Positions 1-28,517 of a DNA stretch of 64,000 bases are shown here, in pieces. Where the stretch lies: positions 368,714,001-368,778,000 of the forward strand of contig CM097882.1 in NCBI GenBank assembly GCA_044892505.1, written 5' to 3'. Position numbers and translations under genes: made by a program. The notes beneath the pieces were generated by a model. It saw nothing but the letters and a program-made list of their open reading frames with translations. It did not search any database and was not told where the DNA came from. Numbering within the stretch: the first letter of the stretch is position 1; each line of letters starts with the position of its first letter. This DNA comes from Schmidtea nova. Lineage: Eukaryota.

Positions 1-3000
1 GGTGTTTGCTTACATAATTGGATAACATTCGAATCAATGTGCCGTTAAATCTTTCCGTTTGTCCATTGGTTTGCGGATGATATGGTGACGTTCGTAATTT
101 GGCTATTCTGAAGTAATTTGTTACTTCATCTAATATTTCACTCATAAAATTTGTCCCTTGATCTGTCAGTATTTGTTTCGGGGTTCCGTATCGACAACAT
201 ATTTCCTCTACTAAAATTCTTGCTACGGTCTTTGCTTTTTGATCCGGCATCGCAAATGCTTCAGGGAATTTAGTCAAATAATCCGTTATTACCAATATAT
301 ATTGATTCCCGTTTAAACTTTCTGGCAATGGTCCTATTACATCCATCGCAATGGTAGTCATTGGTTCCGCTGGTATTGGCATGGGTTTTAAGGGATTTTT
401 CCATTTCTTCCCACTATCCTTTCTTGTGGCACAAGTTAAACAGTTCTTTATCCATTCCTTTACGTCTTCGTCCATTGTTGGCCAATAATATTTTTGTCTC
501 ATGCGATCTAATGTTTTCTTATCGGACATGTGTCCTCCCAACTTTCCGTCGTGGTATTGAGTTATTATCTCTTTTCGTCTATTACCTGGCAGACACATTA
601 ATCGTTTTTCTCCATCCTGTATTAATAACCATCCTTTTTCTATTGTGTATCGATGTTGGTATTTCCTCATGTGTTCTTTTAACTCCGCATTGTCTTTGAA
701 TACATCCATATTCCGTGAGCTTAGGAATTCTATGATGGGTCTTAGTTCTTTATCCTCTTGCTGATCTTTCTTTAACTCGCTGAAATCCAAATCCTCTGCT
801 ATCATTATGCATATTCTTTGCACTTCTGGGTCTGTTAATTCTGGAAACGTTAATCTTGACATGCAATCTGCGTTGGCATTCGCTTTTCCTGATTTGAATT
901 TTATATCTGGTGAATATTCTTGTAATTGCATCGCCCATCTCATTAATCTGCTGGATGTTTCCTTATGTTGTCCTAGCCATACCAGTGGTTGATGATCCGT
1001 GGTTATGCATATAATGTGTCCCCATAATAGATATTTAAAGTGTTTTATTGCTAATATTATTGCCAATGCTTCTCTCTCCGTTACTGAATAATTCTTCTCG
1101 TGTTTCTTGAATGTTCTGCTATAATATCCGATCACTCGTTCTTTACCTTCGTCATCATATTGTCCTAACACTGCTCCTGCTGCATATCCACTTGCGTCAG
1201 TCGCGAGTAAGAACGGCTTCTTGAAATTCGGGTGAACCAATATTGGTGCAGTTATTAGCTTATCTCTCAATGTTTCAAAGGCTGTTTGTTGTTCGCTTCC
1301 CCATATGAACGATACGTCTTTCTTTACTAGCTCCTGGATTGGTTTTGCAATTCCTGCGTAATCCTTTATGAATTTTCTATAGTAACCGCATAATCCGAGA
1401 AATTCTTGGATCTGCGTTATAGTCTTTGGTATTGGACATTCTTTTACTTTATCAATGTTTCTGGGATCCGGTTCCTTTCCTTTTGCGGACACAATATGTC
1501 CTAAGAATGTCACTTTCTCTTTTGCCCAATCACATTTCGATGGTTTGAGCTTGAGTTTCCATTGTCTCAATCTCACAAATACATCTCTGATATCTTGGAT
1601 GTGTTGTTCAAATGTGCCTGAATATATTAACAGATCGTCGATGTAAACCATGCATTGTTTTATGCCGTGGGTGACAAAATTCATACATCTTTGAAATGAT
1701 GCTGGCGCATTGGTTAGTCCAAATGGCATTTTCCTAAATTGGTACAAGTCTCTTCCGATAGTGAAAGCAGTTTTCTCTTTGTCTTCCTCCTTCATTTTAA
1801 TTTGCCAGTATCCGCTTTTCAAATCCAATGATGTAAAATATGCCGCTCCTTGTAATGTCAATAACATCTCGTTGATGTCCGGTAATGGGTAGGTATCCCT
1901 TTTTGTAACTGCATTTAATCTCCGATAATCAATACAAAATCGTTGTGTTCCGTCTTTCTTTTTCACCATTACAACTGGGAATTGCCACGGTGAGCAGCTT
2001 GGTTCAATTACTTCTGCGTCTAGCATTTTCTGTACCTCTGCTTCTGCTACTGATTTTTGCGCTTCGGCTAACTTGTATGGTCTTAACGCAATCGGCGTTT
2101 CGTCTGTTAGTGGAATCGTATGTAGTGTGACGTCGCATGTCCCTAGATCTAAATCGGATGCTGCGAATATGTCTTTATATTCTATCAGTAGTCTTTCTAG
2201 CTGTTTCTTTTGATCCTCATTCAATAGTTGGCTATCAATGTTCCAAGTGGGTTCTTCCTCTTTTACTCCTTCTTCTATTGGTATTTCGATATCTATCATT
2301 GGAGTTAGTTTACCCAATCTTTCATTTTCATAAATTATTTTATCCTCTTCATCGAAATTTACTACATTTATTGGGATTTCTCCGTTGTCATTCGCACTCA
2401 CTAATCCCCTTGCCATTGGCAACGACTTTCTCTTTTCAAATCTTTTACTGGGTTCAAAGATCATGTCACCTTCTAAGGTAGGGTCTATTTTTACGAAGCA
2501 TATTTTCTCTCTCCGTGCTGGTACGATTATTTGTTTCGAACTTGTTACTTTTGCTTCTATTGCGCATATCTGTCCTGTCCTATCCTTTAATCTCATTGTT
2601 CCGAGGTCAATAACTATTTCTTTAAATAATGCTGGCATCAGATCCGTGCCTATAATGCATGGTACGCTCAGTGCTGGTATTACTGCTACGTACGTTTCGA
2701 TTTCCGTGTTTTGATGTTTTATCTTTACCCACCATCTTCCAGCAACTTCTACTACTTCTTTACTGCATGCTATTACGTGAACGTTGGTTCTCTCAATATC
2801 CCGTCTTTGTTCTTGTGGTATCCATTTTATATCTATTGCTGAGATATTTGCTCCTGTATCAATCATCGCTTCGATTTCCCTTCCGTTAATTTCGATTGTT
2901 GTAGTTAATACTGGACCGGTGTTTGATGACATTACTGCAATTGTATGTGAGTCTCCTTGCGGATCTACGCTTCTGCACCGTCTCGTTCTATAGTCTTCCG

Positions 3001-3148
3001 GTATCATAGGATATATGTTTGTCATCGGCATCATTTGCATTGTATTTTGTTTCATCCCCGGTGTTGGTTCTTGGTACATGGTTGGTGGGGGTGCGTAACA
3101 CTTCCACATTTCGCTGGATTCTTTTCGACGTACTGTGGTACTTGATTT
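1..3148 (-). CDS. pol: Pol of element A: aspartic protease, RT, RNase H, integrase (open to window edge, so absent from ORF track)
   Basis: Manual translation: AMIDTGA (DTG 2852-2860), VYIDD (~1635-1646), LATDASG (~1190-1210), YHDGKLGGH..CLTC integrase zinc finger, IAMD, LTDQGTNF, QTNGQTERFN. Frame opens after TAA at 3149-3151. Confidence 0.93.
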
Positions 3149-6100
3149 TTAAATACTTGACCTCCTTCGTTATCATCATCATCGTCGTCACTGGAATCGT
3201 CTTGGGTTCTGTACCCTTTCATTCTTTCCCATAGTCCTTTTCTCTCTTTCTTTAGTTGTTGTCTTGCTTGCTCGTTGTTCATTATCTTTTTAAATTTTCG
3301 TCCCACCTCTTCATCGGTTCCTTTCATTTTTGCCAGTATTTTTAGGAGTCTCTTTATTCGGTGAATATCTTTTGAATGACCGTGTAATACCATTGTTTTT
3401 GCCAAAAATGGTAAGAATCCTACCACCAATTTCCAATTTATTTTCTTTTCTCTTTTATAGATGTCAAAACAGGCTAACATTTGAGTTATTATTACCCGTA
3501 TTATTTGTATAATTAGTATAACACCAAGTATTCCTGCCATCATTTGTCCAAATATTAAAAATCTTCCCCACATCGCTTTCATCATGTTCTCCGTTGCCTT
3601 CTTAAAGTGGGCTGGTGACAATAATAATTCGTAATTTGGTCCACCTTGGTAATTTGTTCCTCCTGTTATTGTTACAATGCTGGATAACACCGCTTCCCTT
3701 CTTGCTGGAAATAGTATATTTTGTCTCGCTGCCTCTAAGTCTTTTGCGCTATAGAATCCCATATTACTTACATCTACGTCTTTAAATTTTCGCCCTTTTG
3801 ATAGTTGCATCAATTCAAATTCCCTTGGTGCTGGTACCTCTGTTCTTGACGGAAACATAACCCAATTTCCGTCTGGTTTTTGGTATAGTGGTCCATATGC
3901 GTTGCTGCAATTGAAAGGATTTGGTTCGAAGCTTACTGGATTTATGATTCTTGTCACTGGTTGCACATATCTTACCTTCCCTTTGTATTCGATTTCTAGT
4001 TCGTTAGTACACTGCCCTGGTTGTAATTTTGTCATTGTCGCTACCTTCGCATTTGTCTTTTTACATATGTATACATACATGACTTCTCCGACTACCCTTC
4101 CAAAATGACCTTCTCTTAATGGTAATAGTGGCATTGCACTATCTGGGTTTGTGATTGCTACTGCTAGTTTTGTCTTTAATATTTCCCTATTTAACATACA
4201 ATCGTTATTTATTAAGTCGTAATACACTTTTTGTAGTGACGCTTGTCCTCTATGGAATAGAAAATCCATTTTATTGTTCATGTAAAGGTGTAACTTAACA
4301 TCATTCGTGTTTACTTTGCGTTTCGCACTAGGTACTTCTTGTTTTGATACGAAAATGCCGGGGTAGTTGGTTTCCAACATGGCTACTCCGCATTTCAAGG
4401 CTGTTTTTCCTTTTACAAACCTCATTCCGATATCTGCATCTGAGGTAATTAGTTCCGTTGGTGTATTTCTCATTTTGATTTGTTTTTCTTGTGTTCGGGT
4501 TTCAATCTTTTTCTCTCCTCGTACTGTGTCTTGAAGTATTTTTCCTCTTGCTGCCTCGTCTTCTTCTTCCTCTTGGAAGGTTTTCCCTTGTATCTCATCG
4601 AATTCTGCTTCCTTTAACAGTTGTAGTTGACATTCCTTTCCTCGTATCTGGTAGGTTAGGGTTGATATACCAGTCTGACAAGTGTTTGACTCGATTTTGC
4701 ACATAGGTAGAGTTTTCATTTCTCCCGTCGTTGGATCGAAGAATGCCTCGTACGTTTTTAGTTCCACTGTATAGGTATCTATTACCACTAGGTTTGTTGC
4801 TGCTACTCCGAATATTGGATATGTTGCTCCTTGGCAGTACCCTTCTCCTCCCGTAATAGCTCCTGCTACATAATATGTTTGTTGCAATATCACTCCCGTT
4901 TTTCCTCTTATCTTTATTCTATCTCTAGTCTCTACTTCCCCATGTTTAAATAATTTTTCACAGTCTTCTCCTTGCAGCATTACCGATTCTCTTTCCGTTC
5001 CTGGCATCACGATTGCTGAGTAATGGCGGTGTCCACAATAAAAAGCAAATCTGGTTTTATAAACTTTGCATTCTCTGACCATTGTTCTTATCAGTTCAGC
5101 TTCCTGATATACGTGATATAATTGTCTCTTTTTTAATGTTTTTAGCTCCGTTGGGGTTGCGTCTTTACATTGTTCTGTCCCTCGTAGTGAATATTTCTCA
5201 CCTAATGCCATTTGATCACAATCGAATACTTCAAATGCTGTTGCTCCGTCAGTACTAATCATCCATATTAACATCATCATAATAATAGAACTCAAGTTTA
5301 GTGATGATTTCCCGTTTCCTGTTCCCGACTTTTCCTTTTCCAATTCTCCCAATATCTCTTCGAATTTCCTTTTCATATTTTTGGCTTGGTTTTTCTTTTG
5401 GTTCGTTTTTGTGAATGTTTCCCATCCTCCTTTACTGATGATGTACGGTTCTATTTCCTTCTCTATAATTTTGGCTGTATTCTTTATATGTCTTTCAAGT
5501 GCTGTGGGTTTCAGTCGACCTCTACTCAGTGTCAGCAGATTGTAAATGGTGTATGCCATAGCTATTAAATATTTGTTATCCGTCTCTGCTCCTTCCGTTA
5601 ACTTCTTTATCAACATCGTGGTTCCTTGCCAATCTAGGTGGTTTGACCTTGTCTTCTCTTTTATCAGTTCTGGTAGGATTGGTGCGATGGCGCTATGCAG
5701 TGATTTCGCCCTTTCGCTTATTTCGTTTATTCTCCACCATTTCTTTAATTCTGGATCGATTATTGCCAGTATTTCCATTAACATCTTTGATATCCATTCT
5801 TCGCCTTGGTATGTTTGTGTTGTTTCTTTTTCTTTCGTTTCGGCTATTTTATTTAGTTTCTTTAGACACAACTCCCATTGATCCCGTCTTTTTTCCTCTC
5901 TTGATTTTATAACTACATTTGCTGGATCCATCTTGGGTCTACCTCTAGGTCGTTTATCCATTGTCGTGCCCGTTTCTACCAATCTTGTTTCTCGTCCAGT
6001 TTCTTCTGTGACGTCTCTTGGTTCGTTGGCTCTTTCTTCTAACCATCTTTCCATTTCTTGTGTGAATTGTACATTTTCTACATTTGCCCTCCTTGCTTCC

Positions 6101-7935
6101 TCTTCTGCTATTTCATTTACTTCTTCGATGATTATTTCTTGTTCAACTTCATCTTCGGTGTTGGTTACCGGTATTGCTGTTGGTAATTCTTGAATTCTTT
6201 CGAAAATATTATCATCTTTCTCTTTTGTTAGCTCTATTAACTCCTCTAACATATCATCGCTATCTGTAAAAATTTCGTCTACATCGTATGGTTCTGGTGG
6301 TGTTCTTTCTCTTGTCTCTCTTGGTGTTGTTCTAGCTTGTTCTGAGCTTGTTCCTGGAGTCATTACCGATTTCATTGGGCTCGGCGTACTCATACTTCCT
6401 TTTGGTTTCTTTTCCTCTTTCAATTTCAATGGTTGGCCTGCTATTGCTGCCACTGTCAATGTATTTGCGATATCTAATTGCGCTGGCGTTATTCCAATTT
6501 CCAAGCTGTTATCTAATGATCGTCCTTGGTGTTGTAAATGGAATGGTGGTTCATATCTCAATTTCTTTTTAATGTCCCGAACTTTCTCCGCTATCCCTAC
6601 CCAAAACTCTTCCTTTTCTTGGTTCGGATATACTATTCTTAGGTGTACTTTCTGTGGCGATTCCTGCGAGAATTCTTGGTTTCTCCATTTTTTAATTACG
6701 TGATCCAATTGTTCTGGACACCACTCGTTAACTCTTTTGTATTCGGCGATTGCTTTTGCTACTTTACGCAAGCATGTTATGTCTTCTCCATTAACTACGA
6801 AAAAATCTGCGAGACCTTTTACTACTTTTCTCTTGCCGTGCGCATTGGTTTTTAATATTTCGACAAATTCTTCCGTTTTTTGTTTTTCTCTTTCCAACCA
6901 CATGGTTGTCGTTTCTGGTCCGTCTAAATCTGCTGGCATGGCTTTTCTTGTTACCATACAGACTCTTCCGGTTTCCGGTTTGTGATCGTCTTCTATGCCT
7001 ATTCCGTATTCCTCTTCGTATTCGCCTGCTTTTGGTTCCCAACATTTTCCTCGTTCGTTCCATTGTTTTTCTACAGGTGTTGGTAATCGTCTGTTGAGAT
7101 TGAGTTCTTCTAATACGTCTTCCCATTCTGGCCAAATCCGCCAATTTCGATAAATGTCTACTATTTGTTGTAATTTATGCACAACTTCTTTTTGTCGTTC
7201 CCGTTCTCTTTTCTCATCTTTAGCAGTTTCTCTTGGTGTATCGTCCATTCTGATAACGTGGATGGTTTGGTGATTATCCCATATACCAATTTTATATAGC
7301 CGTCTTTCATCGTGATCCCATAATACATGTTCGTTGTATTTCATGATTATGTCATCTTCCCATTCTTCTTCTGGTTCTCTTTGTAATAGTGTCTCGTTGA
7401 TGACATTTACTAATTCTTTTATGGTACAATCTGCTAGTACTTCAATCTCTTTGGTATCTTCATTAGGCAATTCCACTGAAATTTTTAGATCTGTTATTTT
7501 TCCTTGTCTAAACATTGCTTTTCCCATTTTGGCAATTACCTTTCCGTATGAGATCTGTGACCATCTCGTGTGACTTGTGTCACGTATGCACTCGATACAT
7601 CGTTTCAACTTCTCGTATTCGCTTCTCATTAACTCCTTTCTATGTTTTTTGATTTGTGGGATGATTTGTTCTATCATGGAATTTAGATTTCCTCGTAAGA
7701 TTCGTCCTTTCTCATATTCTAACCGTGGTTTTATCTTCTTCTCGAAACACGTATTCGCTTCCTTTGCTACTTCTTGTAGGTTCTCTTCTCTCTTATCATC
7801 GTGTATCGATAATGTTGTCACCTCTCCTGGCCATATGCCTGTTTCTATCAAATGCGTCCTTTTCTTCACCAGTCCATTCTGTGAATATAGGAATTTGTTC
7901 TTATACGAACTCCCTAATCTGTCTTCTACCCATCG
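3052..7935 (-). CDS. Cargo/envelope polyprotein: two ubiquitin-like domains, AT-hook, Bcl-2-like domain, signal peptide, chuvirus-like glycoprotein, TM
   Basis: Ubl-like ~7245-7490 and ~6440-6650; KRPRGRPK 5932-5955; PYIISKGGWETF BH2-like ~5413-5448; hydrophobic segment then AFEVFDC; MNNKMDF..NDCMLNREILK..NPD..GEVMYVYIC glycoprotein motifs; TM ~3490-3565. In frame with gag across one TAG. Confidence 0.8.
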   Translation of the reverse strand, partial: RWVEDRLGSSYKNKFLYSQNGLVKKRTHLIETGIWPGEVTTLSIHDDKREENLQEVAKEANTCFEKKIKPRLEYEKGRILRGNLNSMIEQIIPQIKKHRKELMRSEYEKLKRCIECIRDTSHTRWSQISYGKVIAKMGKAMFRQGKITDLKISVELPNEDTKEIEVLADCTIKELVNVINETLLQREPEEEWEDDIIMKYNEHVLWDHDERRLYKIGIWDNHQTIHVIRMDDTPRETAKDEKRERERQKEVVHKLQQIVDIYRNWRIWPEWEDVLEELNLNRRLPTPVEKQWNERGKCWEPKAGEYEEEYGIGIEDDHKPETGRVCMVTRKAMPADLDGPETTTMWLEREKQKTEEFVEILKTNAHGKRKVVKGLADFFVVNGEDITCLRKVAKAIAEYKRVNEWCPEQLDHVIKKWRNQEFSQESPQKVHLRIVYPNQEKEEFWVGIAEKVRDIKKKLRYEPPFHLQHQGRSLDNSLEIGITPAQLDIANTLTVAAIAGQPLKLKEEKKPKGSMSTPSPMKSVMTPGTSSEQARTTPRETRERTPPEPYDVDEIFTDSDDMLEELIELTKEKDDNIFERIQELPTAIPVTNTEDEVEQEIIIEEVNEIAEEEARRANVENVQFTQEMERWLEERANEPRDVTEETGRETRLVETGTTMDKRPRGRPKMDPANVVIKSREEKRRDQWELCLKKLNKIAETKEKETTQTYQGEEWISKMLMEILAIIDPELKKWWRINEISERAKSLHSAIAPILPELIKEKTRSNHLDWQGTTMLIKKLTEGAETDNKYLIAMAYTIYNLLTLSRGRLKPTALERHIKNTAKIIEKEIEPYIISKGGWETFTKTNQKKNQAKNMKRKFEEILGELEKEKSGTGNGKSSLNLSSIIMMMLIWMISTDGATAFEVFDCDQMALGEKYSLRGTEQCKDATPTELKTLKKRQLYHVYQEAELIRTMVRECKVYKTRFAFYCGHRHYSAIVMPGTERESVMLQGEDCEKLFKHGEVETRDRIKIRGKTGVILQQTYYVAGAITGGEGYCQGATYPIFGVAATNLVVIDTYTVELKTYEAFFDPTTGEMKTLPMCKIESNTCQTGISTLTYQIRGKECQLQLLKEAEFDEIQGKTFQEEEEDEAARGKILQDTVRGEKKIETRTQEKQIKMRNTPTELITSDADIGMRFVKGKTALKCGVAMLETNYPGIFVSKQEVPSAKRKVNTNDVKLHLYMNNKMDFLFHRGQASLQKVYYDLINNDCMLNREILKTKLAVAITNPDSAMPLLPLREGHFGRVVGEVMYVYICKKTNAKVATMTKLQPGQCTNELEIEYKGKVRYVQPVTRIINPVSFEPNPFNCSNAYGPLYQKPDGNWVMFPSRTEVPAPREFELMQLSKGRKFKDVDVSNMGFYSAKDLEAARQNILFPARREAVLSSIVTITGGTNYQGGPNYELLLSPAHFKKATENMMKAMWGRFLIFGQMMAGILGVILIIQIIRVIITQMLACFDIYKREKKINWKLVVGFLPFLAKTMVLHGHSKDIHRIKRLLKILAKMKGTDEEVGRKFKKIMNNEQARQQLKKERKGLWERMKGYRTQDDSSDDDDDDNEGGQVFKNQVPQYVEKNPAKCGSVTHPHQPCTKNQHRG

Positions 7936-10707
7936 CTAAATATCTTCCGTGAGTGGAGTTTTGATCCAAATCCTTGGCAAACATGTTTTTATCTCTATTA
8001 GAATTATATATTCATGGAGTGGTTCTTTTAATAATTTTCCTACGTATTGGCTTAGTGTTTCTACTTCCCGGCCTGGTAACCACTCTTTATAGTTCATTTG
8101 TAATATCGCTCTCATGAATTTCCGATAGTGTTTCTTGTCAATGAATTCCTCATTATATATTACTTCTAGCGCGTTATCTAATAATTTCTGGATCTCGTCC
8201 TCTTTTACTTGAATACTTTCTGGTGTCTTTACTACTTCTATCTTTTTGTCCTCAATTTCCGGTTCGTCTAGCATGTCCCCTGCTAGACTACTGACGTCAC
8301 TATCCTCTTCGTCGTCTGAAAAATTCTTTGCCTGGCCTCTCAACATGTTAATGTGTTTTATTTGGTTGATTTCACTTGGTGGATTTTCTGTTGGTTTCGT
8401 TTCACTTTCGCTAGTTTTTTGTGTTGATTTACTCTCGTCGTCTACTACTTCGACTTTTCTCATTTTTCGTTCCAACTCATCTATTTCTCGCAACCGTCTT
8501 CGTATCATTTTCCCTTTAAATATTCGACTGATTCGTGTTTCGTGACGCACTGGCGATGGAATTCCTTCTGGTTCTATTTCCTTGATTACCATCACATTCC
8601 TTTTTGTCTCTACTACTCCCATGTTTTCCCATGTATCCGTTAGTTTCAATTTTACTTCTGGTGCACCTTCTATTTTTAGGAATGCTTCTCTGGGCAGTTT
8701 CGTTACTCCTGGAGCCATTTCATTCACTTTATTGAACAATATTTCTACTTCTTCCTTTATGTTATATTGGAATCGAAACACGTGCTTGTTTGGCAAAATT
8801 ACCATCATTCCTCTTTTCCCGAGTTTCCTTTTCTCTTCTTGGTTCCCTTCTTTTTCTACTTCCTTTTCTGTTTCTTTTTCTGCTTCTTCATCTTCTTGTA
8901 TTATCTCTTTTCGGCCTTCGTTGTTGGTTGGATTCGGGTTTGTTGGATTTATTTCTGGTACAGTCTCTTTCTCGTGGGTATTTGTTTGATTGGTTGCTCT
9001 CATCATATTAATTCTTAGAGGTTGTCGTTCTCTTTCTTGCTGTTTTTGTTCCTCTTCTCTTTGTATTCTTGCCCATTCCTGAGCATGTCGTGCTTGACTT
9101 TCCCGATTCAATCGTTCGTTTTCGCTTTCTATTTTTCTCATCATATTGATTTGTTGTTGACCTGTTTGCGGATTTCCTCTGGTTGTATTGTTTATCAGCT
9201 CCGTCAATCTTTGAACCTCTTGCATTAAATGTATCTCTTTAGTGGTATTTTTATTTTGGTTATTATTATTACTATTTGGTTGGTTTCCGTATTCCGGTTG
9301 GTTTCCATTATTTGGCTGATTTCCATAATTCTGTCGGTTTCCACCAGTTGGTTGGTTTCCATAGTTTTGTCGGTTTCCGGTATTCTGCCAGTTTCCTCGT
9401 TGATTGCTTCTTTGTCCGCAATTTCTTGATAGGTGTCCAGGCCGTCCACAATTAAAACAGGTTATTGTGTAACATCTGCTCTCTGAATGCCCTTTTACTC
9501 CACATTTTCCACAATTCAAGTTCTGATAACATTCTTGTTTCCAATGTCCCAATTTCCCACATGTTTTGCATTGTTTCGTTGGTCCTTGGGGGTTGTAATT
9601 GTTTTGATTTCCGTAATTTGATACTTTATTCCCTTCATTCCTTCGTTGCGGTGGTGGTCGGTTTAATTGTTGTGAATTTGGAATGTGGTTATTCAGGTTC
9701 ACTTCTTGTTCGTTTTGTGCTGTATCCATAGCTAAATAGATTCTACCATCATTTCCTATCATGTGTAGTTCAAATCTATTAGCTGTTTCTAGTGCTTGGT
9801 CGATGGTTTTACAACCTTGACATCCAACTTGCGCTCTTATGTCGGGTCTTCTTAATCCTCCCACAAAGATAGCTGCCATTAACTCCTCATTTATTGGGCT
9901 GTCTTGATTAAAGATCAACTTTGCTAACTTTTTCAATTCGCTTGCATATACCGCATTCGATTCATTTATCTTTTGTTTCCTCATTGAGAATTCCGTGAAT
10001 GCCTCATTCAATACTTTATTTATTCCAAAGGTTTGTTGGAAAAAGTCCTTTATCGCTGACCAACTTGTAGGTGGATTAGTTCCATTCTTTGCTTCCAAAT
10101 ATAGATCTAATGCGCTATCTTTCAAATATAGCTGAATTCTGCTTACAGTTGTTTCTGGTTTCCACTTGCATACTTCCACGAATATGCCAAATTCCTTTAA
10201 GAAAGTTTCTAATTTACTCGCATCTCCATTAAACGGTTCTCCGGAAAATTTGTCTTTTATCTCTTCTCTTGGTTCACTCATTTCGATTCCGCTGTCTGTA
10301 GTTATTTTACTTTCGTTTCCTCTTGTTTCTAGTTCACTGTTAGGTTCGTCACTTGAATTTCGGTCGATCTCAGTTTCCTTTGCTGATTCGTTATCTGATG
10401 CTTTACTATCGTTATCGGTATCGTCACTTTCTGTTTCTTGTTCTACTTCGTCTTCTATTTCTTCTATATAATCGTTGTTGGTTTTGTCGACTTCTATTTC
10501 ACTTATTGGGTTTCTCTCGGGTTCTGCTTGATTTTCTTTGTTGCTTGAACTGTTGCTTGTTACTGATAATTTATCGTTTTCGATAATCGACTTTTGTATT
10601 ATTATCTGCCTTGCTTTACTTCCTTTTGGGCCTTTCTGATTATTATTCTTGGTAGCTTTATTCTTTTCTGCTGGTTTTATTATGACACTCTTTTCTCCTT
10701 TTCTCAA
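7936..10707 (-). CDS. gag: Gag of element A (capsid, three CCHC zinc knuckles, N/Q-rich region, C-terminal Ubl-like segment)
   Basis: EPFNGD..FLKEF, LYLKDSALD, RKQKINE, FVGGLR capsid motifs; CKTCGKLGHWKQEC, CGKCGVKGHSESRC, CFNCGRPGHLSRNC. Confidence 0.92.
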   Translation of the reverse strand: MRKGEKSVIIKPAEKNKATKNNNQKGPKGSKARQIIIQKSIIENDKLSVTSNSSSNKENQAEPERNPISEIEVDKTNNDYIEEIEDEVEQETESDDTDNDSKASDNESAKETEIDRNSSDEPNSELETRGNESKITTDSGIEMSEPREEIKDKFSGEPFNGDASKLETFLKEFGIFVEVCKWKPETTVSRIQLYLKDSALDLYLEAKNGTNPPTSWSAIKDFFQQTFGINKVLNEAFTEFSMRKQKINESNAVYASELKKLAKLIFNQDSPINEELMAAIFVGGLRRPDIRAQVGCQGCKTIDQALETANRFELHMIGNDGRIYLAMDTAQNEQEVNLNNHIPNSQQLNRPPPQRRNEGNKVSNYGNQNNYNPQGPTKQCKTCGKLGHWKQECYQNLNCGKCGVKGHSESRCYTITCFNCGRPGHLSRNCGQRSNQRGNWQNTGNRQNYGNQPTGGNRQNYGNQPNNGNQPEYGNQPNSNNNNQNKNTTKEIHLMQEVQRLTELINNTTRGNPQTGQQQINMMRKIESENERLNRESQARHAQEWARIQREEEQKQQERERQPLRINMMRATNQTNTHEKETVPEINPTNPNPTNNEGRKEIIQEDEEAEKETEKEVEKEGNQEEKRKLGKRGMMVILPNKHVFRFQYNIKEEVEILFNKVNEMAPGVTKLPREAFLKIEGAPEVKLKLTDTWENMGVVETKRNVMVIKEIEPEGIPSPVRHETRISRIFKGKMIRRRLREIDELERKMRKVEVVDDESKSTQKTSESETKPTENPPSEINQIKHINMLRGQAKNFSDDEEDSDVSSLAGDMLDEPEIEDKKIEVVKTPESIQVKEDEIQKLLDNALEVIYNEEFIDKKHYRKFMRAILQMNYKEWLPGREVETLSQYVGKLLKEPLHEYIILIEIKTCLPRIWIKTPLTEDI

Positions 10708-11254
10708 CGGGATTACTTTTGTATACTCAATTTTCCTGTCTTATCGTATTCCGATTCTTTTCTTCCTTGGTTGATTGGTTTGGTTTGATTGATTTATCTA
10801 AAATACAAATGTCACTTCAACGATACTCTATTGTTATCGTTGCGCTTTTATTCCCTTTTTACGGGACTTCTCATTACTGGGTTTCTATTATTTTTCCCCA
10901 TTCCCAGATTCCCCTTTATTTAAGTCTATTTAAATTATCTATATACTAGTCACAATTATCTATTTAGTCATAACAATTATCTATCGGTTATTAAAATACA
11001 TCAATTATTTTTCCCGCGGTCTCCCAATTTATTTGTCGTTCGAACGCTCTAATTCCCTGAGTCATTTGACTCGATTATTATTTTATCATCTCTTTATCTT
11101 TCTCTCTGCTAGCCTCTAATTAATTCTGCCGGTCTTTCCGGTCAGCTCCTATTTCTCAATTCTACTTGCATGCATTATTTTAGGTCGCATAATCAGCTTT
11201 ACTCGCATTTCTCTATTATCGGTGCGCACTATTCTCATTATCGTCGACGATCAC

Positions 11255-11470
11255 AACTCTGGGCCTATATTCCCTCTGTTGTTATTTCTTATCACTTGCA
11301 ACCCTGGGCCTATATTCCCTCCGTTGCTACTCAAACGATTGTAACCTTGGGCTTATATTCCCTCCGTTACTATCTTCCTTTAATTTTAAATAATTGCAAC
11401 CCTGGGCCTATATTCCCTCCGTTGCTACTCAACAATTGTAACCCTGGGCCTATATTCCCTCCGTTACTAT
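11255..11470. repeat. Imperfect tandem repeat (core AACCCTGGGCCTATATTCCCTCCGTT), about 5 copies, in leader of element A
   Basis: Seen directly. Confidence 0.85.
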
Positions 11471-11484
11471 ATATCCGGATATCC

Positions 11485-11720
11485 CTATTGGCTCCTTTGG
11501 CCTCAAATTAATATCAATTATCTCAAATGGCTCTTATGGCCTCAAATTCATATCTTATTATCTCAAATGGCTCTATTGGCCTTAAATTCATATCTCAATT
11601 ATCTCAAATGGCTCTATTGGCCTTAAATCATATCTCAATTATCTCAAATGGCTCTATTGGCCTTAAATCGTATCTCTCAATAACGCCTAGCTAGGTCATT
11701 CAATATGGCTCTTTGGCCTC
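11485..11720. repeat. Imperfect tandem repeat (core TATCTCAAATGGCTCTATTGGCCTTAAAT) in leader of element A
   Basis: Seen directly, about 5-6 copies. Confidence 0.85.
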
Positions 11721-11995
11721 AACCCTTTGTTTCAAGGGACAAACCGCTGATAACCCTTTGTTTCAAGGGACAAATTCTAATAACCCTTTGTTTCAAGGGA
11801 CAAACCGCTGATAACCCTTTGTTTCAAGGGACAAATTCTAATAACCCTTTGTTTCAAGGGACAAACCGCTGATAACCCTTTGTTTCAAGGGACAAATTCT
11901 AATAACCCTTTGTTTCAAGGGACAAACCGCTGATAACCCTTTGTTTCAAGGGACAAATTCTAATAACCCTTTGTTTCAAGGGACAAACCGCTGAT
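11721..11995. repeat. Perfect alternating 31/30-bp hairpin repeat (ABABABABA)
   Basis: Constant AACCCTTTGTTTCAAGGGACAAA followed alternately by CCGCTGAT or TTCTAAT; 9 units. Confidence 0.95.
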
Positions 11996-12472
11996 AACCT
12001 TTCCTTAACCGGTTAATCGTAATTCTTAACTTCGCTAGCGACTACAATTTCTCAGCTGAGTTCTCTCAATTTCATGCGAGCTGATTATGCACCTCTTATT
12101 TTTCTCTATAATTCCTCGATTCTTTGTTTTATTACTAATTCTTTCGCTGATCAGTCATAATTCAATTTTTATTATTTTCTCTGCGCGCATCTTACCTCAT
12201 CAGGGTTTTCCCTATTTCTCTCCCCAACCAAAATATACAAAAAGATCGCGTTGGTCTACTAATGCGGGATGTGGTGATCAATCACATCACAAAAGCTTTC
12301 CAACATTTGCGATTGGCCCCTTTCTATATACCCCGAGTGGGTTGATCAACTGGTACCTCCCAATGGGTGCTTAACGGACTACTTGATAGTAGCTCAAAAA
12401 TTAATTAACATTGTTGATTGCTCCCCTGACTTTGTCATTCGATACAATATATTAACACACTCTAAATATTTA

Positions 12473-12934
12473 TTATAAATAAACTACAATTCTATCAGCC
12501 ACAGAGAAATTGCACATGGGGCACTCATCACACTTATTCGCACAGTTTTTACAGAATCGAAAATGTCCGCATGGTAGAAACATTATTTGGATTTCACTGT
12601 CTTCGCATATGTAACATTGTTTATATTGTTTTGCTGCCTCGACCCCTTGCGACATCCATCGGTTATATGTTAGACTTAACTGCTGTTCTATATGTCGGCA
12701 TCTGATATTCAACTCGGCATCCTCTAATCGTGCTTTGTACCATTTATATCGCGTACTTATATCGAGTTTATTTACTTTCTCTATGATTTTTAATTACTCA
12801 GTTGTTTCCTCCGTTTGTGTCGTAGGTTCCTCATATTCGGATGCTCTTATTCGGGTTATTTTTTCGCAGACTGTCTCAAATGTATCGTTCTCGGTGTTAA
12901 AAAATTCTTCGATTTCTTTCAGTTTTTCCTCCAT
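12473..12934 (-). pseudogene. Coiled-coil plus C-terminal IAP-type RING-HC protein; one in-frame TAA at 12794-12796
   Basis: CYICED..IMFLPCGH..CKNC...CDECPMC...RIVVYL* at the extreme C-terminus; frame extends to ATG 12934 (MEEKLKEIEEF). Confidence 0.8.
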
Positions 12935-13238
12935 TTCCTATATAATTTATTTATATACTGTGTTAATATTATTGGAAAAGTAGTACTGTGTTTCGTTTTC
13001 AACAGTTTATAGCCTCCCCCCGTGTTTCGGTAAATTGTCGTCCCGACCTGTTATTTATGAATGCATTTGTTCAATTTATCTACTAATTTGTTTTAATTCC
13101 CTGTCTGTAATTATCTATTTCCACGCGACTCACTTTTATCTCGATTACTCTTTCGGTTACTATTTCTACTCACACAATTCTGACTTTAAATTTCTCTGTT
13201 GTCATTGGGTTCACCTTTTCCGCATAAAACAAAGTTGA

Positions 13239-13256
13239 ATCCCGGCTGAGCCCCCA
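13239..13256 (-). other. Primer-binding site, tRNA-Pro type
   Basis: Minus strand TGGGGGCTCAGCCGGGAT, 16/18 match to the canonical tRNA-Pro PBS TGGGGGCTCGTCCGGGAT. Confidence 0.85.
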
Positions 13257-13801
13257 AATTTATGCTGGGATTATGGGTGGGTTTCAAGTAATTCAAATAA
13301 ATTATTAATCATTAATTGAACGACTATTGATGAGTACGTATACTAGGGATTCCACGCCCATAACCATACATAACATGACTACTACACGCGTATGCCCTTG
13401 ACTATTCCCTACTAGTCAAGTTGGTACTGCATACGGTGGTGGAAAAATGATGGGCAGGTGAGCTTTGTTGCCAAAACTACTCCCCATTTATCTTCCCTCG
13501 GGTCCTTGCTGCCGATAGAAGGTCTTACGCATTTTCATTCTATGGATGTTCGCCCTACTGAATTTTTTTATCACACGCCTTTCCCAATGACTTTCCTTAA
13601 TTTATCTACAATGTAATTAATCAGTCCCTGCGTATAAATGGTCGGTTTGAGAAAATTTCGGGTGCGATTTTTTTATTTCGATGATTTCATTGTTGTTATT
13701 TTATTTTATTTAGTAACATCCCCCGATGAGAGACAAAATTTACACAGAAATACTTTTATTAAAATACTAAAAACAGGATTGTTATTTTACATGGATGTTT
13801 C

Positions 13802-14386
13802 CTAAGCGAATTCCAGACTAATCTCCTGAATCAATTCCGCTTCGGTTAAGGAGTTCAAGTGGTGGATTTGTTCGTCCAGACGCTTCGCAAATTCTCGGCG
13901 ACGACGACGCTGTCGCGATCCCATTCGATGTTTTCGAAGCTGTTGGGTTATGACCGGTGCTGACGCTATTGTTCTCGGGGGATCACTGAGAAAAATAGGC
14001 AAATCTTCCGTTGTAAGAGAGGGGGCCAGGATGATTCCCTCTTCCGTCCCGCAAGCGACATCTTGGTGAGTGCATTGTATCCAGCGCTGAGCCGTGATCG
14101 GCCGGATTAGCGCTCGCAATTCGGAGTCGATGTAACTTCTTGTTACTGCATTTAGGCAATTTCGGAGTTCTCGCTGGACGGCATCTAGTTCCAATTTGGT
14201 TGCAGCCAGTGCTTCCTGCATTCGCTCAAGTTTTTTCGACTGGTCCTTCATTTGTTCGGGCGAGAACCACTTCGCTCTCAATTCATCATTGGCGACCGTG
14301 AGTCGCTTGATCTGTCGCTGCTGGTCCCTCAACTTCCTCTCTTGGATTTGTCCCATGATTTTCTTGGAATTTTCTGAAGTCGGCAT
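13802..14386 (-). CDS. Hypothetical 194-aa coiled-coil protein with Arg-rich motif (RQRRRRR), inside putative LTR
   Basis: ATG-initiated GC-richer ORF; AATAAA on minus strand at 13755-13760. Confidence 0.55.
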   Translation of the reverse strand: MPTSENSKKIMGQIQERKLRDQQRQIKRLTVANDELRAKWFSPEQMKDQSKKLERMQEALAATKLELDAVQRELRNCLNAVTRSYIDSELRALIRPITAQRWIQCTHQDVACGTEEGIILAPSLTTEDLPIFLSDPPRTIASAPVITQQLRKHRMGSRQRRRRREFAKRLDEQIHHLNSLTEAELIQEISLEFA

Positions 14387-14704
14387 GTTATCTGAATATT
14401 ATAACGATAAATTCGCTGGAGGACCTATCAACAATTCTATTTTATTTAGTCTACTATTTACTATTGTTAAACGAGATGCATATTAATGTTTTTAATTATT
14501 GAGTTCTCTACAAAATTATTTAACTATCTAATCATTGAAGACTCAAAAGATTTATTGAACTAATTTTATATTAATAAATGAATTTCCTAATGACTATAAC
14601 AACTACAATACTAAATCTACATGACAACACTATTAACAAAATGAGACACTTCCGAATTTTTAAAACATTTATTAAATTCAAAAAACAGGCGGCCATTGAT
14701 TCCG

Positions 14705-15172
14705 CTATTCATCTTCGGTCATTTTTCCTCGATATGAAAATATCGATCTGATTTGCAAATTTGTGTTGATATTGGACGAGGCCTGCTGAAAACGGATCCT
14801 CTCAGCTTCCCGAAGGGGTCGTATTGCTGTATTGAACTTGAACCCCAATTCCTTGAAGGTAGAGGCTGGAATGAACCCCCAATATATCACACATTTCGGG
14901 AATCCTCCCTTATCCAACATCAGGACGAACCAGGCGGCGTGCCATGATTCGAATTCCTCGTCTGGAATGATTGGCCAACTAGCGCATCCCCGGTACCATA
15001 CGTGATGCCGTGGATGGTCCCATACTGTAAAGGGACAGGCGGTTTCAAGCTCTCGGCGCCATGCCCACATTTTTTGATGGATTTGCTGTAAAATCTCGAA
15101 AGGAGCCGGCTTTAATGGGCTAACTCGGGCTCGTTCTTGTCGTTTTTTGATAGTGTATCTATGCTTAGTCAT
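14705..15172 (-). CDS. Hypothetical 155-aa Trp-rich protein inside putative LTR
   Basis: ATG-initiated GC-richer ORF; AATAAA on minus strand at 14668-14673. Confidence 0.5.
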   Translation of the reverse strand: MTKHRYTIKKRQERARVSPLKPAPFEILQQIHQKMWAWRRELETACPFTVWDHPRHHVWYRGCASWPIIPDEEFESWHAAWFVLMLDKGGFPKCVIYWGFIPASTFKELGFKFNTAIRPLREAERIRFQQASSNINTNLQIRSIFSYRGKMTEDE

Positions 15173-16096
15173 GATTCCAAAACGATGCTGAATTTTATAA
15201 TAGTTACAATTTACATCAATAATTAATTATAGTAAATGTTATCTCTCATCGTGATACCCTTATTATTTGCCTTCCCCTTAGACCTTAGCTGAAATCACGA
15301 GAAACTGTCGTTCGCTATGGTATGCATTACTCTCGTATCTACTTAGCTTTATCTGTTTACGATCACTATTATAGTTGAAAAAAAAAAAAAATGGTGATTT
15401 GTCTGCTTGGATTTTCAAAATATTGATACCTCAAAACGGAAGCTCTCTCACGTCATGTATCCCTAGCTTATTCGAAAAACGCTCCTTTGTATCAAATGCG
15501 GTCGACATAATTTTCCTAAGGTTTATTAGACGTTTATTAAACAGCTGCGCTGTGGTGAGGGTGAAAAATTGTGCCTCCTCCCGGTTAACAAATTCTTTCA
15601 TATCTTTAAGCTTTATCAAAAAATTATCGTCCCCTCTGTAGCTAAAATGATCGGAAAATAATTCCCCGGATTTGTTGGGTGTCCCATGTGCAAGTCTCAA
15701 CCACTACTAATAAAATTAGGTTTTGCTATTTATTACTTTACCGTGTGTGGAGCCCTCGAGCACCACGCCACGGACGGACACCTTGGGAACCTAAAGCTCC
15801 CAACGGCGCGAGATTAATATGATAGATTAAACAGTTTAAATACGACATAAATCAAAATGAGATGAATAATATATTATAATATGATAATGACATATGAATA
15901 CAACATCAAATAATGTACCAAAAATACCTCAATTGAATTCTGAAAATTTATTGATCAAAATCGGTCTAAACGGTGATCGTCGTCGGGGCAATGTGCAATC
16001 TAATGCGAATTTTTAGTTAAAGTCTAAATTTCAGTCTAACAAAGTCTACTGAAGTCTCACTCTAGTCAAACGTCTCAGTCTGATTTTATGAAAAAT

Positions 16097-16120
16097 CTGA
16101 TCAGTATTTATACTGATCAG
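16097..16120 (-). promoter_or_regulatory. TATA box (TATAAATA) embedded in inverted repeat CTGATCAGTA..TACTGATCAG; candidate LTR promoter
   Basis: Seen directly, ~400 bp inside the proposed LTR start. Confidence 0.5.
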
Positions 16121-16633
16121 TCGTGTCTAGACCGACCAATCAGGTTCGGCCATTTTCAGGGTGGTTTTTAATTATTGTTCTTGATTCTAATTAATTTTTA
16201 TTTTTTAGATTGTATTCTTCCTCGGAGGTCTGGGTTTCAAAAACAATTATTCAATAACAAGTACTTTTATTTTGTTTTAATTACCATTATTTGTATTTAT
16301 TTTGTTTTTTAGATGTCTCCTGGGCCAGTTAATATCTCGAAATTCCTCTATTTTTATTTATAGCTTGTACTTAGTTTGTCTATATTTTTATTATATTACT
16401 CCTTTCTTTTAATAAATAAATATTCCCCTTTTTATCTTATTTTTCTCTTTTTTGTTTTAATTAATCTACTTTTATTTCACTGTTCTCTCTATTTGGCTGG
16501 CCCAACAATTATTTTAATTTTATTATTAATTATTTATCATAATTATCTTTTTTCACCTTTGATCTTTTTTTATTATTATTATCAATAATTCTCATAATGA
16601 CTATAGATCAAAATTTTTTTTTTTTATAAACAA

Positions 16634-16671
16634 TAACACAATATTTCGGCACAGCCTTTATCAAGTGTGTA
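16634..16671 (-). ncRNA. Minimal hammerhead ribozyme motif (inverted pLTR copy)
   Basis: Reverse complement of ACACACTTGATAAAGGCTGTGCCGAAATATTGTGT. Confidence 0.65.
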
Positions 16672-16767
16672 TTTCTATCGTTATATTTACTTAATCCTAA
16701 ATAGTAGCCTTAATTATTTTTTTAATATTTTATAATGATTTTATTGGATGAAAAAATTTATTTTATT

Positions 16768-18354
16768 TTAATTTTTTTGTGCGAATTGAATGTTGATGGA
16801 CGGTTTGTATTTTTTTATGAAAAAAGTCTCGGAAGCTAATCTTTGTAATGAATTTTTGAATCCCTCTTGTAGGATCTGGCATTTTGTTTCTTCTATAGAT
16901 GGAGTTGTTTTATGTACTTTTTCCCCGTGTTCGTAATAATTACTGGTTTTGATTTTAGTATGTTCATTAAGTCGGGTGCGAAAAGTTCTATGTGTTTCTC
17001 CTATGTAAGTAGCGTCACATTTTTGACAAGAAAGTTTATATACTATATTTTTGGAAAAGCAAAAGCATCGGGTTGTGGAACGACAAAGACATTTATGTTT
17101 GGAGATGTTGGAAATTGGTGGCTTTCGGAGTTGTGATTTTAACGGTGCGGAGGTTATGAACGTTGGACGGATGTGGATAGGCAAATCTGTTTGATTAAAA
17201 ATGTTGGTGATTTTGTTGGCTGTAGTGTCATTTAGGAAAGGTAATCTTAGATATGTTGTGTGTTTGTTATTGTTATTGTGTTTCTGGCGTTTTCTATTGT
17301 TGCGTTTATTGTGGTATGGTTCGTTAAGGAAGTGTTTCTTTACAAAGTCTTCAGGGTATCCATTTTGGAGGAATCGTATTTTGAAGTTTTCTAATGTTTC
17401 TTGTATTTTGTTTGCGTCTGAACAGTTTCTTATGGCTCTTTTTCTTTCTCCTATTAGTAATGCGATTTTGCGTTGAAGTGGAACGTGGCTTTTCCATGGG
17501 AGGATATGACCGCTATGTAAACCTTTAGAATATAGCTCGGTGTTTGCATTTAGTGTATCTTGGCCTTTTGTGAAACTTACCATGGTATCTAAAAACGGTA
17601 TTTTACCTTCTGTGTTCGGTGTTTCAAAAGTAAATTGTATGTTGGTGTTAGTAGAATTTGCGTGTGATAGGATTTGATTGAGAGGGATTGTGGAGACTAT
17701 GAAGATGTCGTCGATGTATCGTTTCCAGAAAAGTATTTTGTCCCCAAAAAAAGATATGATCTTAGATTCTATAAAGTTCATGTAGAAGATGGCTAAGATG
17801 GGAGAAAGGTTATTACCCATGGCTAATCCATGAATTTGTTTGAATGGTTTTTCTTTAATTATGACAGTATCTGAATTTATTGCTAATTTTAGAAGTTCTA
17901 TAAAGTCTTGTTTAGTTAAGTCTGCGAGGTCAGTATTGGCTTTATGAGTTTCAAAGAAAGAAGCTGCGATATCGAAAATGTTATTCTCTCCGTGAAGAGG
18001 AATAGATCCGTAAAGATTGGAAACGTCAAGAGATCCCCAGAAGTACTGTTGTCCTGAGTTTAACGGAAGAGACGTATTTGTAATTTCGGAGACGAATTCA
18101 GTTGTGTTTTTAAGATGAGAAGGAACCAAAGGCAAAAGTGTTTTTAGAATTTCTGAAAGAACTTTAGAAAGTGTTGTGGAAGGAGTGTCAACTGCAGATA
18201 CAAGAGGTCTACCTTTTAAAGGACTTTTGTGATCTTTAGGTAACATAGTCATATTACTAGGTAAAGGCTCACTGCAGTTGCATTTTAAAAGTAAATCTTT
18301 GATTTGAAGGTTAATTTGTTTATTTGCAAGTGTTGAAAGTTTTTTATTGTATAA
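16768..18354 (-). pseudogene. Inverted 5'-truncated copy of the Penelope RT/GIY-YIG ORF
   Basis: Translation identical to the plus-strand ORF from LYNKKL onward; the N-terminus in the ORF track is antisense pLTR sequence. Confidence 0.9.
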
Positions 18355-18574
18355 AAAAACAAAATGCCAGATCCTACAAGAGGGATTCAAAAATTCATTA
18401 CAAAGATTAGCTTCCGAGACTTTTTTCATAAAAAAATACAAACCGTCCATCAACATTCAATTCGCACAAAAAAATTAAAATAAAATAAATTTTTTCATCC
18501 AATAAAATCATTATAAAATATTAAAAAAATAATTAAGGCTACTATTTAGGATTAAGTAAATATAACGATAGAAA

Positions 18575-18612
18575 TACACACTTGATAAAGGCTGTGCCGA
18601 AATATTGTGTTA
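18575..18612 (+). ncRNA. Minimal hammerhead ribozyme motif in 5' pLTR
   Basis: ACAC-TTGATAA-AGGC TGT GCC-GAAA-TATT-GTGT: stem I, variant core, stem II, GAAA, palindromic stem III; expected in Penelope pLTRs. Confidence 0.7.
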
Positions 18613-18650
18613 TTGTTTATAAAAAAAAAAAATTTTGATCTATAGTCATT

Positions 18651-21248: not shown

Positions 21249-21344
21249 AATAAAATAAATTTTTTCATCCAATAAAATCATTATAAAATATTAAAAAAAT
21301 AATTAAGGCTACTATTTAGGATTAAGTAAATATAACGATAGAAA

Positions 21345-21382
21345 TACACACTTGATAAAGGCTGTGCCGAAATATTGTGTTA
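21345..21382 (+). ncRNA. Minimal hammerhead ribozyme motif in 3' pLTR
   Basis: Identical to the 18575 copy. Confidence 0.7.
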
Positions 21383-21959
21383 TTGTTTATAAAAAAAAAA
21401 AATTTTGATCTATAGTCATTATGAGAATTATTGATAATAATATTAATTATTTAAATTATAATTTTTTATTTATTATAATTTTTTTTTATTTAAACTATAT
21501 TTTTCTTTATTTCTTTATTAATTTAATTTTAATTATTTCTTTATTTTCTTTATTTTCTATTTATTTTTTAAAAATATTATTAATTTACTTTTGTTAGTAT
21601 AATTTATTATTGATATTATTATTTTTGAAGAACTTCAATGATAAACGTTCAATGAAAGCACTACTCAAAATATTATAAACATTCAACAAAATGAGACAAT
21701 TCTGCACTACAAAAATAAAAATTACATGCTCAAATACGATAAATATTAAACTAATTATTTATTACTAATTACTTATTTATTATTTCATTATTAATCTTAT
21801 TATCATTATTATTTTTATGACATAAACATAGTTTCTAAAAATAAGGAATCAATTTATAAAATCAGAGTGAAACTTATTTGTACAATATATAACTAAATAA
21901 ATGAAAACAATAAAAAAACAAAGTTTTTCAACAAATTTTATTTAATAAAACTGTTTCTT

Positions 21960-24900: not shown

Positions 24901-25140
24901 AAAAATTAATGATGATGGGGTTGAAAAAGAACTTTGACCACTCAATTTACTTATTTGTGAATATTTTGTAAGTTTAAAGCTTATTTCTTTAATTTTATTA
25001 ATTGACCAATTTGCTACCATTTTCACAGACTTTAGTAATTTTTTCACTTAATAGAGCAATACCATCATCTAAAAAGGTATCACTCATGGATTTTGCGGAA
25101 TTTGATATTATAAAAGTGGAATTGTCCATCTTTTTCAAAT
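21960..25140 (-). pseudogene. Fragmented protein-primed DNA polymerase B (Maverick type), copy 1
   Basis: Fragments in order: PFVVYADFE, DHDH..AACSKCN, FHNLRRYD, KFIDS, YLKLDV, YININNL, KLLNNSLYGKT, DTDS, FLRPKC; many stops and frameshifts. Confidence 0.9.
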
Positions 25141-26018
25141 TCTACATCAATGCAAAATTGTACTTTTACATATCCTATTTTAGAAATAATTGAATTAAAT
25201 CTTTTTAGTAAAGGCAAAAATACCTACATTGAATATTTATCGCTGAATTAGGTATGATTCCATCAATAGTAATATTTTCGTCACTAAAAATCTTTATTTC
25301 GACGTGATTTTGATCATTCATATTTACATCACCTAAAGTAAAAACTAAATAATATACTAAGTTAAAGATTAAATACTATTTTCTTCCACATTTTCTAAAA
25401 TCGATTTCCCAATTGAATTATTAATATTAATATTACCTAGATTAATACTAAATGATAATAAATTTAAAAAATAAATTTACCATTTTCTTTGTCGCTTGGT
25501 TTTTCTTTCATAAAACTAGTTGCTGTAGTGTTCATTTTAAGTTTTTATATTTGTTTAAGTGAATAATGAATAAAAGATTATTATTTATATATCAAAGTTA
25601 TTACACATACATAAAATTTGACCAATCAAAATCGAGTAAAGGGTAAGAAAATTTATTCTTATCAGCCAATCAAAATCGAGTAAGTGGTAGGAAATTTATT
25701 ATTATCATCAAATAAAAGTCAAGAATTATGACTAAACATATATTACGTTGCAGTATTTTAAAAAACTAAATAATTTTTAAAGACCATTTGGCGATATTAT
25801 TTAGTTAACATCATATAATTACACCAAATTATAATTTACATCAAAGTTATAAAATATTTTAATAAATTCCATACACGTCATATTATTACAATAAATTAAA
25901 TCAAATATTTGAATGAATTACATCTTAATTACATTACAGTAATTACGATAGATATAAAAATTATTCTAATTATTTTTTGATAAAAAACATTAGAATTGTC
26001 AATAACACACACAGATAC

Positions 26019-26060
<42 letters not shown>

Positions 26061-26064
<4 letters not shown>

Positions 26065-26194
26065 CAATAATTCTCATAATGACTATAGATCAAAATTTTT
26101 GTTTATAAAAAAAAATTTTGATCTATAGTCATTATGAGAATTATTGATAATAATAATAAAAAAAGATCAAAGGTGAAAAAAGATAATTATGATA
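26061..26194. mobile_element. Miniature inverted Penelope end inserted in a (TA)n tract
   Basis: Matches pLTR ~18615-18711, preceded by ~40 bp of its own reverse complement; (TA)n on both sides. Confidence 0.85.
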
Positions 26195-26234
<40 letters not shown>

Positions 26235-26879: not shown

Positions 26880-26980
26880 TAAAAATTATTAAAATTATTA
26901 AAATTATTAAAATTATTAAAATTATTAAAATTATTAAAATTATTAAAATAATATAAAATTATTAAAAATATTAAAAATAG
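26880..26980. repeat. 9-bp tandem repeat AAAATTATT
   Basis: Seen directly. Confidence 0.85.
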
Positions 26981-27002
26981 AATAAAAATTTTTTGTATAA
27001 AA

Positions 27003-28264: not shown

Positions 28265-28517
28265 CTTTTCTAAAAATGTAAATTATAAAAAATGTAAACT
28301 AGTAATTTTTTAATTTATCATTTTTGAGTTTTGTCGATGTGAGACTCATTTTAGATATAAATTATCACAAAATGTTCATGGTATATATACGATAGTAACA
28401 CACACAACATATATAAAATAATACACACATAACCAATCAGATTCGAGTACACGTATTATGTCTTTATCTGATAAATACATACATAGCCAATCAGAATCGT
28501 GCATTACTATTGTTGGT

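Follow-up and report, generated by a model that had tools for sequence, protein, structure and literature searches.

The giant gypsy-like retrotransposons of planarians known as Burro and GYPSM1 are described in the published text as carrying an apoptosis- and ubiquitin-related toolkit of Bcl-2-like, Ubl, TRAF/MATH and ankyrin modules (PMC6431247). For Burro1, a captured IAP (B-IAP) is reported, in a secondary citation, to protect planarian stem cells (PMC13465017). IAP proteins themselves are defined, in the review text consulted, by their having one or more BIR domains (PMC3972657).

We analysed a stretch of 64,000 nucleotides of Schmidtea nova DNA (the window) in which a preliminary description had placed an IAP-type RING E3 gene between the primer-binding site and gag of a retroelement. 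The location was borne out: the gene lies on the minus strand between the primer-binding site (13256-13239), from which it is 305 bases downstream, and gag (10740-7936), in an element of 28.4 kb. The features of this element are the following.

13260..16507, minus strand: 5' LTR of 3,248 bp, with one mismatch and one gap relative to the 3' LTR
14705..15172, minus strand: ORF of 155 amino acids within the LTR, without a Pfam match
13802..14386, minus strand: ORF of 194 amino acids within the LTR, without a Pfam match
13239..13256, minus strand: primer-binding site of 18 bases, identical in a second family of elements described below
12935..12940, minus strand: TAG-GAA preceding the ATG, a candidate splice acceptor read from sequence only
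12473..12934, minus strand: accessory gene of 153 codons, with a helical N-terminus and a terminal C3HC4 RING (translation, Pfam)
12512..12616, minus strand: RING finger C107-C141 of the zf-C3HC4_3 class; after it comes a tail of 12 residues, aromatic at +11
11237..12025, no strand assigned: tandem-repeat blocks (families D3, D10 and D17) in the interval between the RING gene and gag
7936..10740, minus strand: gag with CCHC knuckles (Pfam, ORF)
3052..7935, minus strand: Ubl-like repeats, a Bcl-2-like region (about 5386-5838) and a Monjiviricetes-type fusion glycoprotein
2..3109, minus strand: protease, RT, RNase H and integrase, in another frame in the window's copy, continuing past the window into ankyrins
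G000:C1:368702079-368705327: 3' LTR, outside the window (LTR comparison)

The primer-binding site resembles one for a proline tRNA, and the element is accompanied by a 4-bp target-site duplication. Like Burro/GYPSM1 as presented in the published text, the element is about 28 kb long and has multi-kb LTRs, gag with CCHC knuckles and the order PR-RT-RH-IN, together with Ubl and Bcl-2-like modules, a mononegavirus-type env between gag and pol, ankyrins and MATH/TRAF (PMC6431247). Unlike the elements of that text, it has no BIR and carries TRAF as a separate 3' ORF, and section 7 of the same paper says nothing of a RING gene that lacks a BIR and follows the primer site (PMC6431247). Judged by gene order, the element matches a Burro-type giant Ty3/gypsy retrotransposon, the match being one of layout. 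The glycoprotein between gag and pol was recognised by PF24664 (E=1e-69), and beyond the window the same element continues with ankyrins (Ank_2, E=1e-14), then TRAF/MATH (MATH_2, E=5e-21) and coiled-coil-like and transmembrane-like ORFs. The 3' block holds a complete TRAF-like gene (L031:3363-4772, minus strand) with RING-like cysteines, TRAF zinc fingers and MATH, which is 36% identical to its second-family counterpart. In the window's copy gag stops at its 7936 end, while in a sister the frame carries on to the env region; both polyprotein junctions that are broken here are read through in a sister element, so that the window's copy is defective in its polyprotein too. Pieced together from sisters, the polyprotein would comprise about 5,000 amino acids.

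The Ubl match in Pfam is weak by itself (E=0.038) and is supported by homologous regions. A Bcl-2 match obtained with the whole ORF is weak as well (E=0.063), and the Bcl-2-like region alone gave no Pfam or PDB sequence match. This region is homologous (E=3.5e-7) to a region of a neighbouring element that scores as Bcl-2 at E=1.4e-4. A fold search with a poor model of it (pLDDT 47.5) placed Bcl-2 family chains in all of the top ten ranks, at E values above 0.2, and a two-sequence profile found Bcl-xL at E=1.6, behind repeat-protein artefacts. Searching longer proteins with the Ubl/Bcl-2 region gave no match among 4,570. Between the Bcl-2-like region and the glycoprotein lies a hydrophobic stretch (about 5300-5400, minus strand), a layout repeated in the neighbouring element; the stretch could double as a Bcl-2 membrane anchor and an env signal peptide. 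The ubiquitin- and apoptosis-manipulating toolkit proposed in the preliminary description holds as a domain inventory (a weak Bcl-2-like match, a weak Ubl match and, just outside the window, TRAF/MATH and ankyrins), while the role in apoptosis and the E3 activity are predictions from these domains.

The ORF at 12473-12934 translates on the minus strand into a protein that ends in IVVYL before the stop and has the C-terminal RING with PCGH noted earlier; all eight zinc ligands (C107, C110, C122, H124, C128, C131, C138 and C141) are present. A single premature TAA lies at codon 47 (12794-12796) of the window's copy and was read as X in the Pfam search. The proposed comparison with zf-C3HC4_3 (PF13920) gave E=6.7e-12 and 45.5 bits against a cut-off of 27. 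The nearest solved sequences in the PDB are those of cIAP2, cIAP1 and XIAP (E of 1e-13 to 1e-11), along with BIRC7, and after them CGRRF1, IDOL and MEX3C. A predicted model of the window's protein, of low confidence (pLDDT 58), shows helices up to residue 102, among them a long one at residues 73-102, with the RING after them, and a fold search with this model returned the RINGs of IDOL, cIAP and XIAP at E values near 0.01 and none at or below 0.001. The long helix is what stands of the upstream coiled coil reported earlier. Heptad periodicity in the pre-RING helix gave p=0.55 in the 153-codon family and p=0.33 and 0.40 in its relatives P0002 and P0151, and was significant only in the 160-residue gene of the second family (p=0.002). 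A homodimer prediction with zinc scored 0.02, which is evidence neither for nor against dimerisation. For the N-terminus (residues 1-104), a protein atlas search gave no usable match; protein searches returned no recognised relative of it, and UBA, CARD and FERM were likewise unmatched. The single RING protein found no relative among 11 candidates, and phage records gave no match; an alignment of the RING gene gave four matches of 1,171, two of them full-length.

A genome search with the RING recovered mostly frames of 160 amino acids. These are colinear with the 153-codon gene from end to end at 26-28% identity and belong to the second family of elements, which is a high-copy one. P0002 and P0151, from public assemblies, also align over the full length, at 29-30% identity, and P0153 is a further full-length relative. 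Met1-Glu2 is invariant across the 153-codon gene, the 160-residue family and P0002/P0151, and the eight zinc ligands are kept in all aligned homologues. In the four second-family elements examined, the 160-residue gene lies 2.5-2.8 kb downstream of the identical primer site. All four match the 153-codon family in the Ubl, protease, ankyrin tail and coiled-coil ORF; none of the four has a match to its gag, env, RT or integrase. Two of them also carry TRAF and a gene of 399 amino acids that encodes both BIR and RING, 8-10 kb downstream. The second-family elements (L105-L117) have near-identical LTRs of at least 4.6 kb and a Ubl-protease-ankyrin ORF. Their LTRs hold an ORF of 194-208 amino acids with an arginine-rich end, and between the LTR ORFs of the two families BLASTP gave no significant similarity (E=0.23).

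We then compared the gene between copies, since absence from sister copies or neutral evolution had been named at the outset as the observations that would speak against it. Neither was seen. The 30 best DNA matches include 29 sisters, and in every one of these the 153-residue frame is open. The first codons of the gene have exact matches at 87 genomic places, and in a position-ordered sample (the first 30 of these 87, overlapping the best-match sample) 28 sisters are open, each with 8/8 ligands, and two are broken. Pairwise pN/pS in the position-ordered sample was 0.18 (0.08-0.38), with 0.19 for the N-terminus and 0.17 for the RING, and 1.5 in both shifted frames; the best-match sample gave 0.10 (0.03-0.25). 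In the second family the ratio over residues 10-110 was 0.21 (0.10-0.40) at 22 loci, the other four of the 26 having been set aside as broken or truncated; selection of the loci was on RING score, and the bias that this brings affects the RING part only. We conclude from these substitution patterns that the RING gene of the 153-codon family is under purifying selection. That the gene is a neutral relic, a mere passenger of the element, is hardly credible as an explanation: the window's copy and two of the 30 sampled sisters are broken, as a relic might be, but pN/pS ranges from 0.10 to 0.23 across both families and the stop is confined to the window's copy, and the substitution pattern refutes this reading.

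A genome search allowing up to one mismatch places the stretch bearing the stop at a single site, that of the window's copy. In the gene, this copy differs from its nearest sister by 9 nt, which exceeds the expectation from the age of the LTRs, so that most of the changes probably predate the insertion. A recent insertion whose gene is nevertheless 9 nt from that of its nearest sister suggests that loss of the gene did not prevent a parent element from being copied, a point against the ligase reading proposed below. The window's copy is a young defective insertion from which the full protein would not be made.

Persistence of the gene in the second family bears on whom the protein might serve. 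If it were a ligase acting for the element itself, in turnover or trafficking of polyprotein products or of the glycoprotein and not on host signalling, its place as the first gene after the primer site and the Ubl-like repeats of the polyprotein would be readily understood. We regard this as improbable, since purifying selection persists in second-family elements that keep the Ubl, protease and ankyrin parts but have no gag, env, RT or integrase. That elements devoid of replication enzymes hold on to the gene would instead point to action on the host cell and not on replication.

The start codon lies in the context TAG-GAA-ATG, with an AG 3 nt upstream as the preliminary description had pointed out, and this TAG is kept in 87/87 exact genomic matches to the first codons. 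No genomic copy has another base at -3 of the candidate acceptor, and hence no processed copy was found. In a survey that took in L031:1532-5196 and L105-L110, 12 of 15 accessory ORFs from both families have a YAG no more than 6 nt from the ATG, compared with 55 of 335 background ATGs (16%; p=1e-7), as do 8 of the 11 accessory ORFs without in-frame stops (p=5e-5). A YAG next to most accessory-ORF starts is consistent with a common spliced leader, and suggests that the RING gene is expressed via splicing. None of the 15 junctions listed, of 37 from four contig runs, ends at the candidate acceptor, which has no bearing on expression.

We next considered the relation of the gene to IAPs. Its RING is of the class found at the C-terminus of IAPs, both by Pfam (PF13920) and by its top PDB matches, XIAP and cIAP. 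No BIR was found by Pfam in the ORFs of the element (window and adjoining piece), and a home-made BIR profile run in six frames over window positions 1-16600, the adjoining piece and four sister pieces found none either (best E=1.2), in agreement with the earlier remark that no BIR is visible. The published text on Burro1 describes B-IAP as element-borne with a terminal RING of the zf-C3HC4_3 class, as in the present gene, but B-IAP has a BIR and sits in the 3' accessory block (PMC13465017), and the present gene is BIR-less and lies 5' of gag. The 399-residue BIR-RING gene, which is abundant in the genome, fits the B-IAP described for Burro1 as far as that text goes; B-IAP and the BIR-less RING gene can therefore share one element in the second family. 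Likeness between the two is confined to 58 RING columns (34%). In a tree of 41 rows over these columns, B-IAP falls together with three host RING exons (95/93), and upstream of one of these exons there is a BIR exon; the helical-RING proteins form a group of their own (89/97) that includes the long-branched RING of an unrelated repeat. A clade joining the helical-RING proteins to the B-IAP and host IAP RINGs was neither recovered nor rejected (p-AU 0.395; 41 rows, 58 columns), and a larger tree of 161 rows, for which the careful search is incomplete, was largely unresolved. The host exons lie in a cluster at G000:C2:315.68-315.86 Mb (L075, L077, L078 and L174), and one of them is preceded, at a distance of 7 kb, by a same-strand BIR exon; this cluster is a candidate donor of B-IAP.

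These data also bear on the idea that a spliced IAP with a BIR, namely Burro1 B-IAP or a truncation of it, has this ORF as its last exon. A phase-0 AG precedes the start in both families, and the p-AU value for a clade with planarian-type IAP RINGs leaves room for such an origin. We consider it very improbable, as the element has no BIR, Met1-Glu2 is conserved between proteins that are only 26-30% identical, likeness to B-IAP covers the RING columns and nothing more, and B-IAP, which groups with host IAP RINGs, is encoded by a gene of its own on the 3' side, 8-10 kb away. The lack of a BIR, the restriction of likeness to the RING columns and the separate tree groups together indicate that the gene is neither an IAP nor a recent piece of B-IAP. 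The label IAP-type thus describes the RING class and fails for the protein, whose RING was not placed among the B-IAP and host IAP RINGs in the 58-column tree. On present sequence evidence, the RING gene is a distinct accessory gene, separate from the published Burro1 B-IAP.

Other repeats in the window were also surveyed. The gene is not universal, as no RING gene separates the candidate primer site from gag in a Burro-like neighbour (39870-50608, minus strand); in this neighbour the candidate primer site stands directly before gag, and the order is gag-CCHC-Bcl-2 (E=1.4e-4), env-protease and RT-RH-IN. Another high-copy repeat has a RING ORF, now decayed, at about 55250-55700 (minus strand), with related loci L176 and L177, and its RING falls within the helical-RING group on a long branch. 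At two loci the ORF is present in each arm of inverted repeats that measure 1.0-1.5 kb and stand about 5 kb apart, and the ORF that they flank at L176 resembles a mariner transposase. A Penelope-like RT ORF (16535-21446), arranged as an inverted partial tandem with perfect arms of 1,787 bp, begins some 30 bp beyond the LTR. The interval 22101-39075 holds genes of Maverick/Polinton type (polB, integrase, A32-like ATPase and double jelly roll), and they include a TBP-like ORF at 28518-29045 (Pfam TBP, E=3e-16).

We propose, with moderate confidence, that the small 153-residue product is likely to act as a dimeric RING ubiquitin ligase and to tag a protein of the host, so that the cell is kept alive or permissive for the element. 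A short LTR leader would be spliced to the AG preceding the ATG, and the RING protein would dimerise through its pre-RING helix, RING and tail in the manner of the cIAP, XIAP and IDOL RINGs. The tail aromatic would prime E2~ubiquitin in trans, and the helical N-terminus would bind the target in place of BIRs. To judge from the TRAF, Bcl-2-like and Ubl cargo, this target might be a death or defence signalling protein. The protein resembles cIAP1/2, XIAP, BIRC7, IDOL/MYLIP and MDM2-MDMX in its ligand spacing, preceding helix and short tail with a conserved aromatic. Unlike these dimeric C-terminal RING ligases, it has no BIR, UBA, CARD or FERM match and has a helical N-terminus of about 100 residues, and the E2-surface proline varies across the helical-RING family.

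An aromatic residue (Tyr or Phe) is found at +11 after the last cysteine, in a tail of 12-13 residues, in all five family members printed. The tail residue Phe616 of cIAP1 is described as priming E2~Ub in trans and as required for activity (PMC6349121). The +11 aromatic is widespread in this RING class (100 of 114 non-BIR matches), and as a class-wide feature it supports ligase chemistry and not an IAP-like target or action. The proline of C-P-x-C and an isoleucine are residues of the E2-binding surface. The isoleucine is invariant (Ile109 in the 153-codon family), and the proline is kept in the 153-codon family (Pro139) but is replaced in the second family and in P0002/P0153, which counts against a ligase. 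The arginine that follows the last RING cysteine acts as a linchpin; the corresponding residue in the 153-codon gene is Asn, again a point against a ligase, although XIAP also has no arginine at this position.

By analogy with MDMX and MDM2, the protein might instead be a RING partner that is not itself a ligase and that pairs with host IAP or B-IAP RINGs and alters their stability. We hold this to be rather unlikely. Homo- and heterodimerisation of IAP RINGs is described as regulating IAP stability (PMC3972657), and possible partners are at hand in a genome with more than a thousand BIR candidates and intron-bearing host IAP exons; two of the four second-family copies even have B-IAP on the same element. 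Variation of the E2-surface residues across the family, with a constant tail aromatic, would also suit a partner or decoy. However, the 153-codon family has no B-IAP in cis and keeps both Ile109 and Pro139, and its N-terminus is constrained as much as the RING, for which a pure RING decoy would have no need. Beyond the ligase reading itself, we suggest tentatively a broader possibility, in which a counter-defence ligase or IAP-RING regulator, made from a spliced leader, represents an undescribed and ancient BIR-less helical-RING family of Burro-type elements that is retained without replication enzymes and drives the hold of the element on host stem cells alongside B-IAP.

We found no published description of a BIR-less helical-RING gene behind the primer site; the main Burro1 paper (2026) and the 2018 genome paper, which lie outside the search, may show it. 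That Burro carries apoptosis and ubiquitin modules, a BIR-RING IAP among them, is known, and what is apparently new is a BIR-less helical-RING gene that is distinct from B-IAP and common to two families. This gene is a second, BIR-less RING cargo that predates the split of the two element families, and selection on it outlasts the loss of gag, env, RT and integrase. A family without any BIR has been amplified to at least 87 RING-bearing copies, so that B-IAP is not required for such success. Should the protein prove to be an active ligase, the host pathway that these elements must disarm would be revealed by its target.
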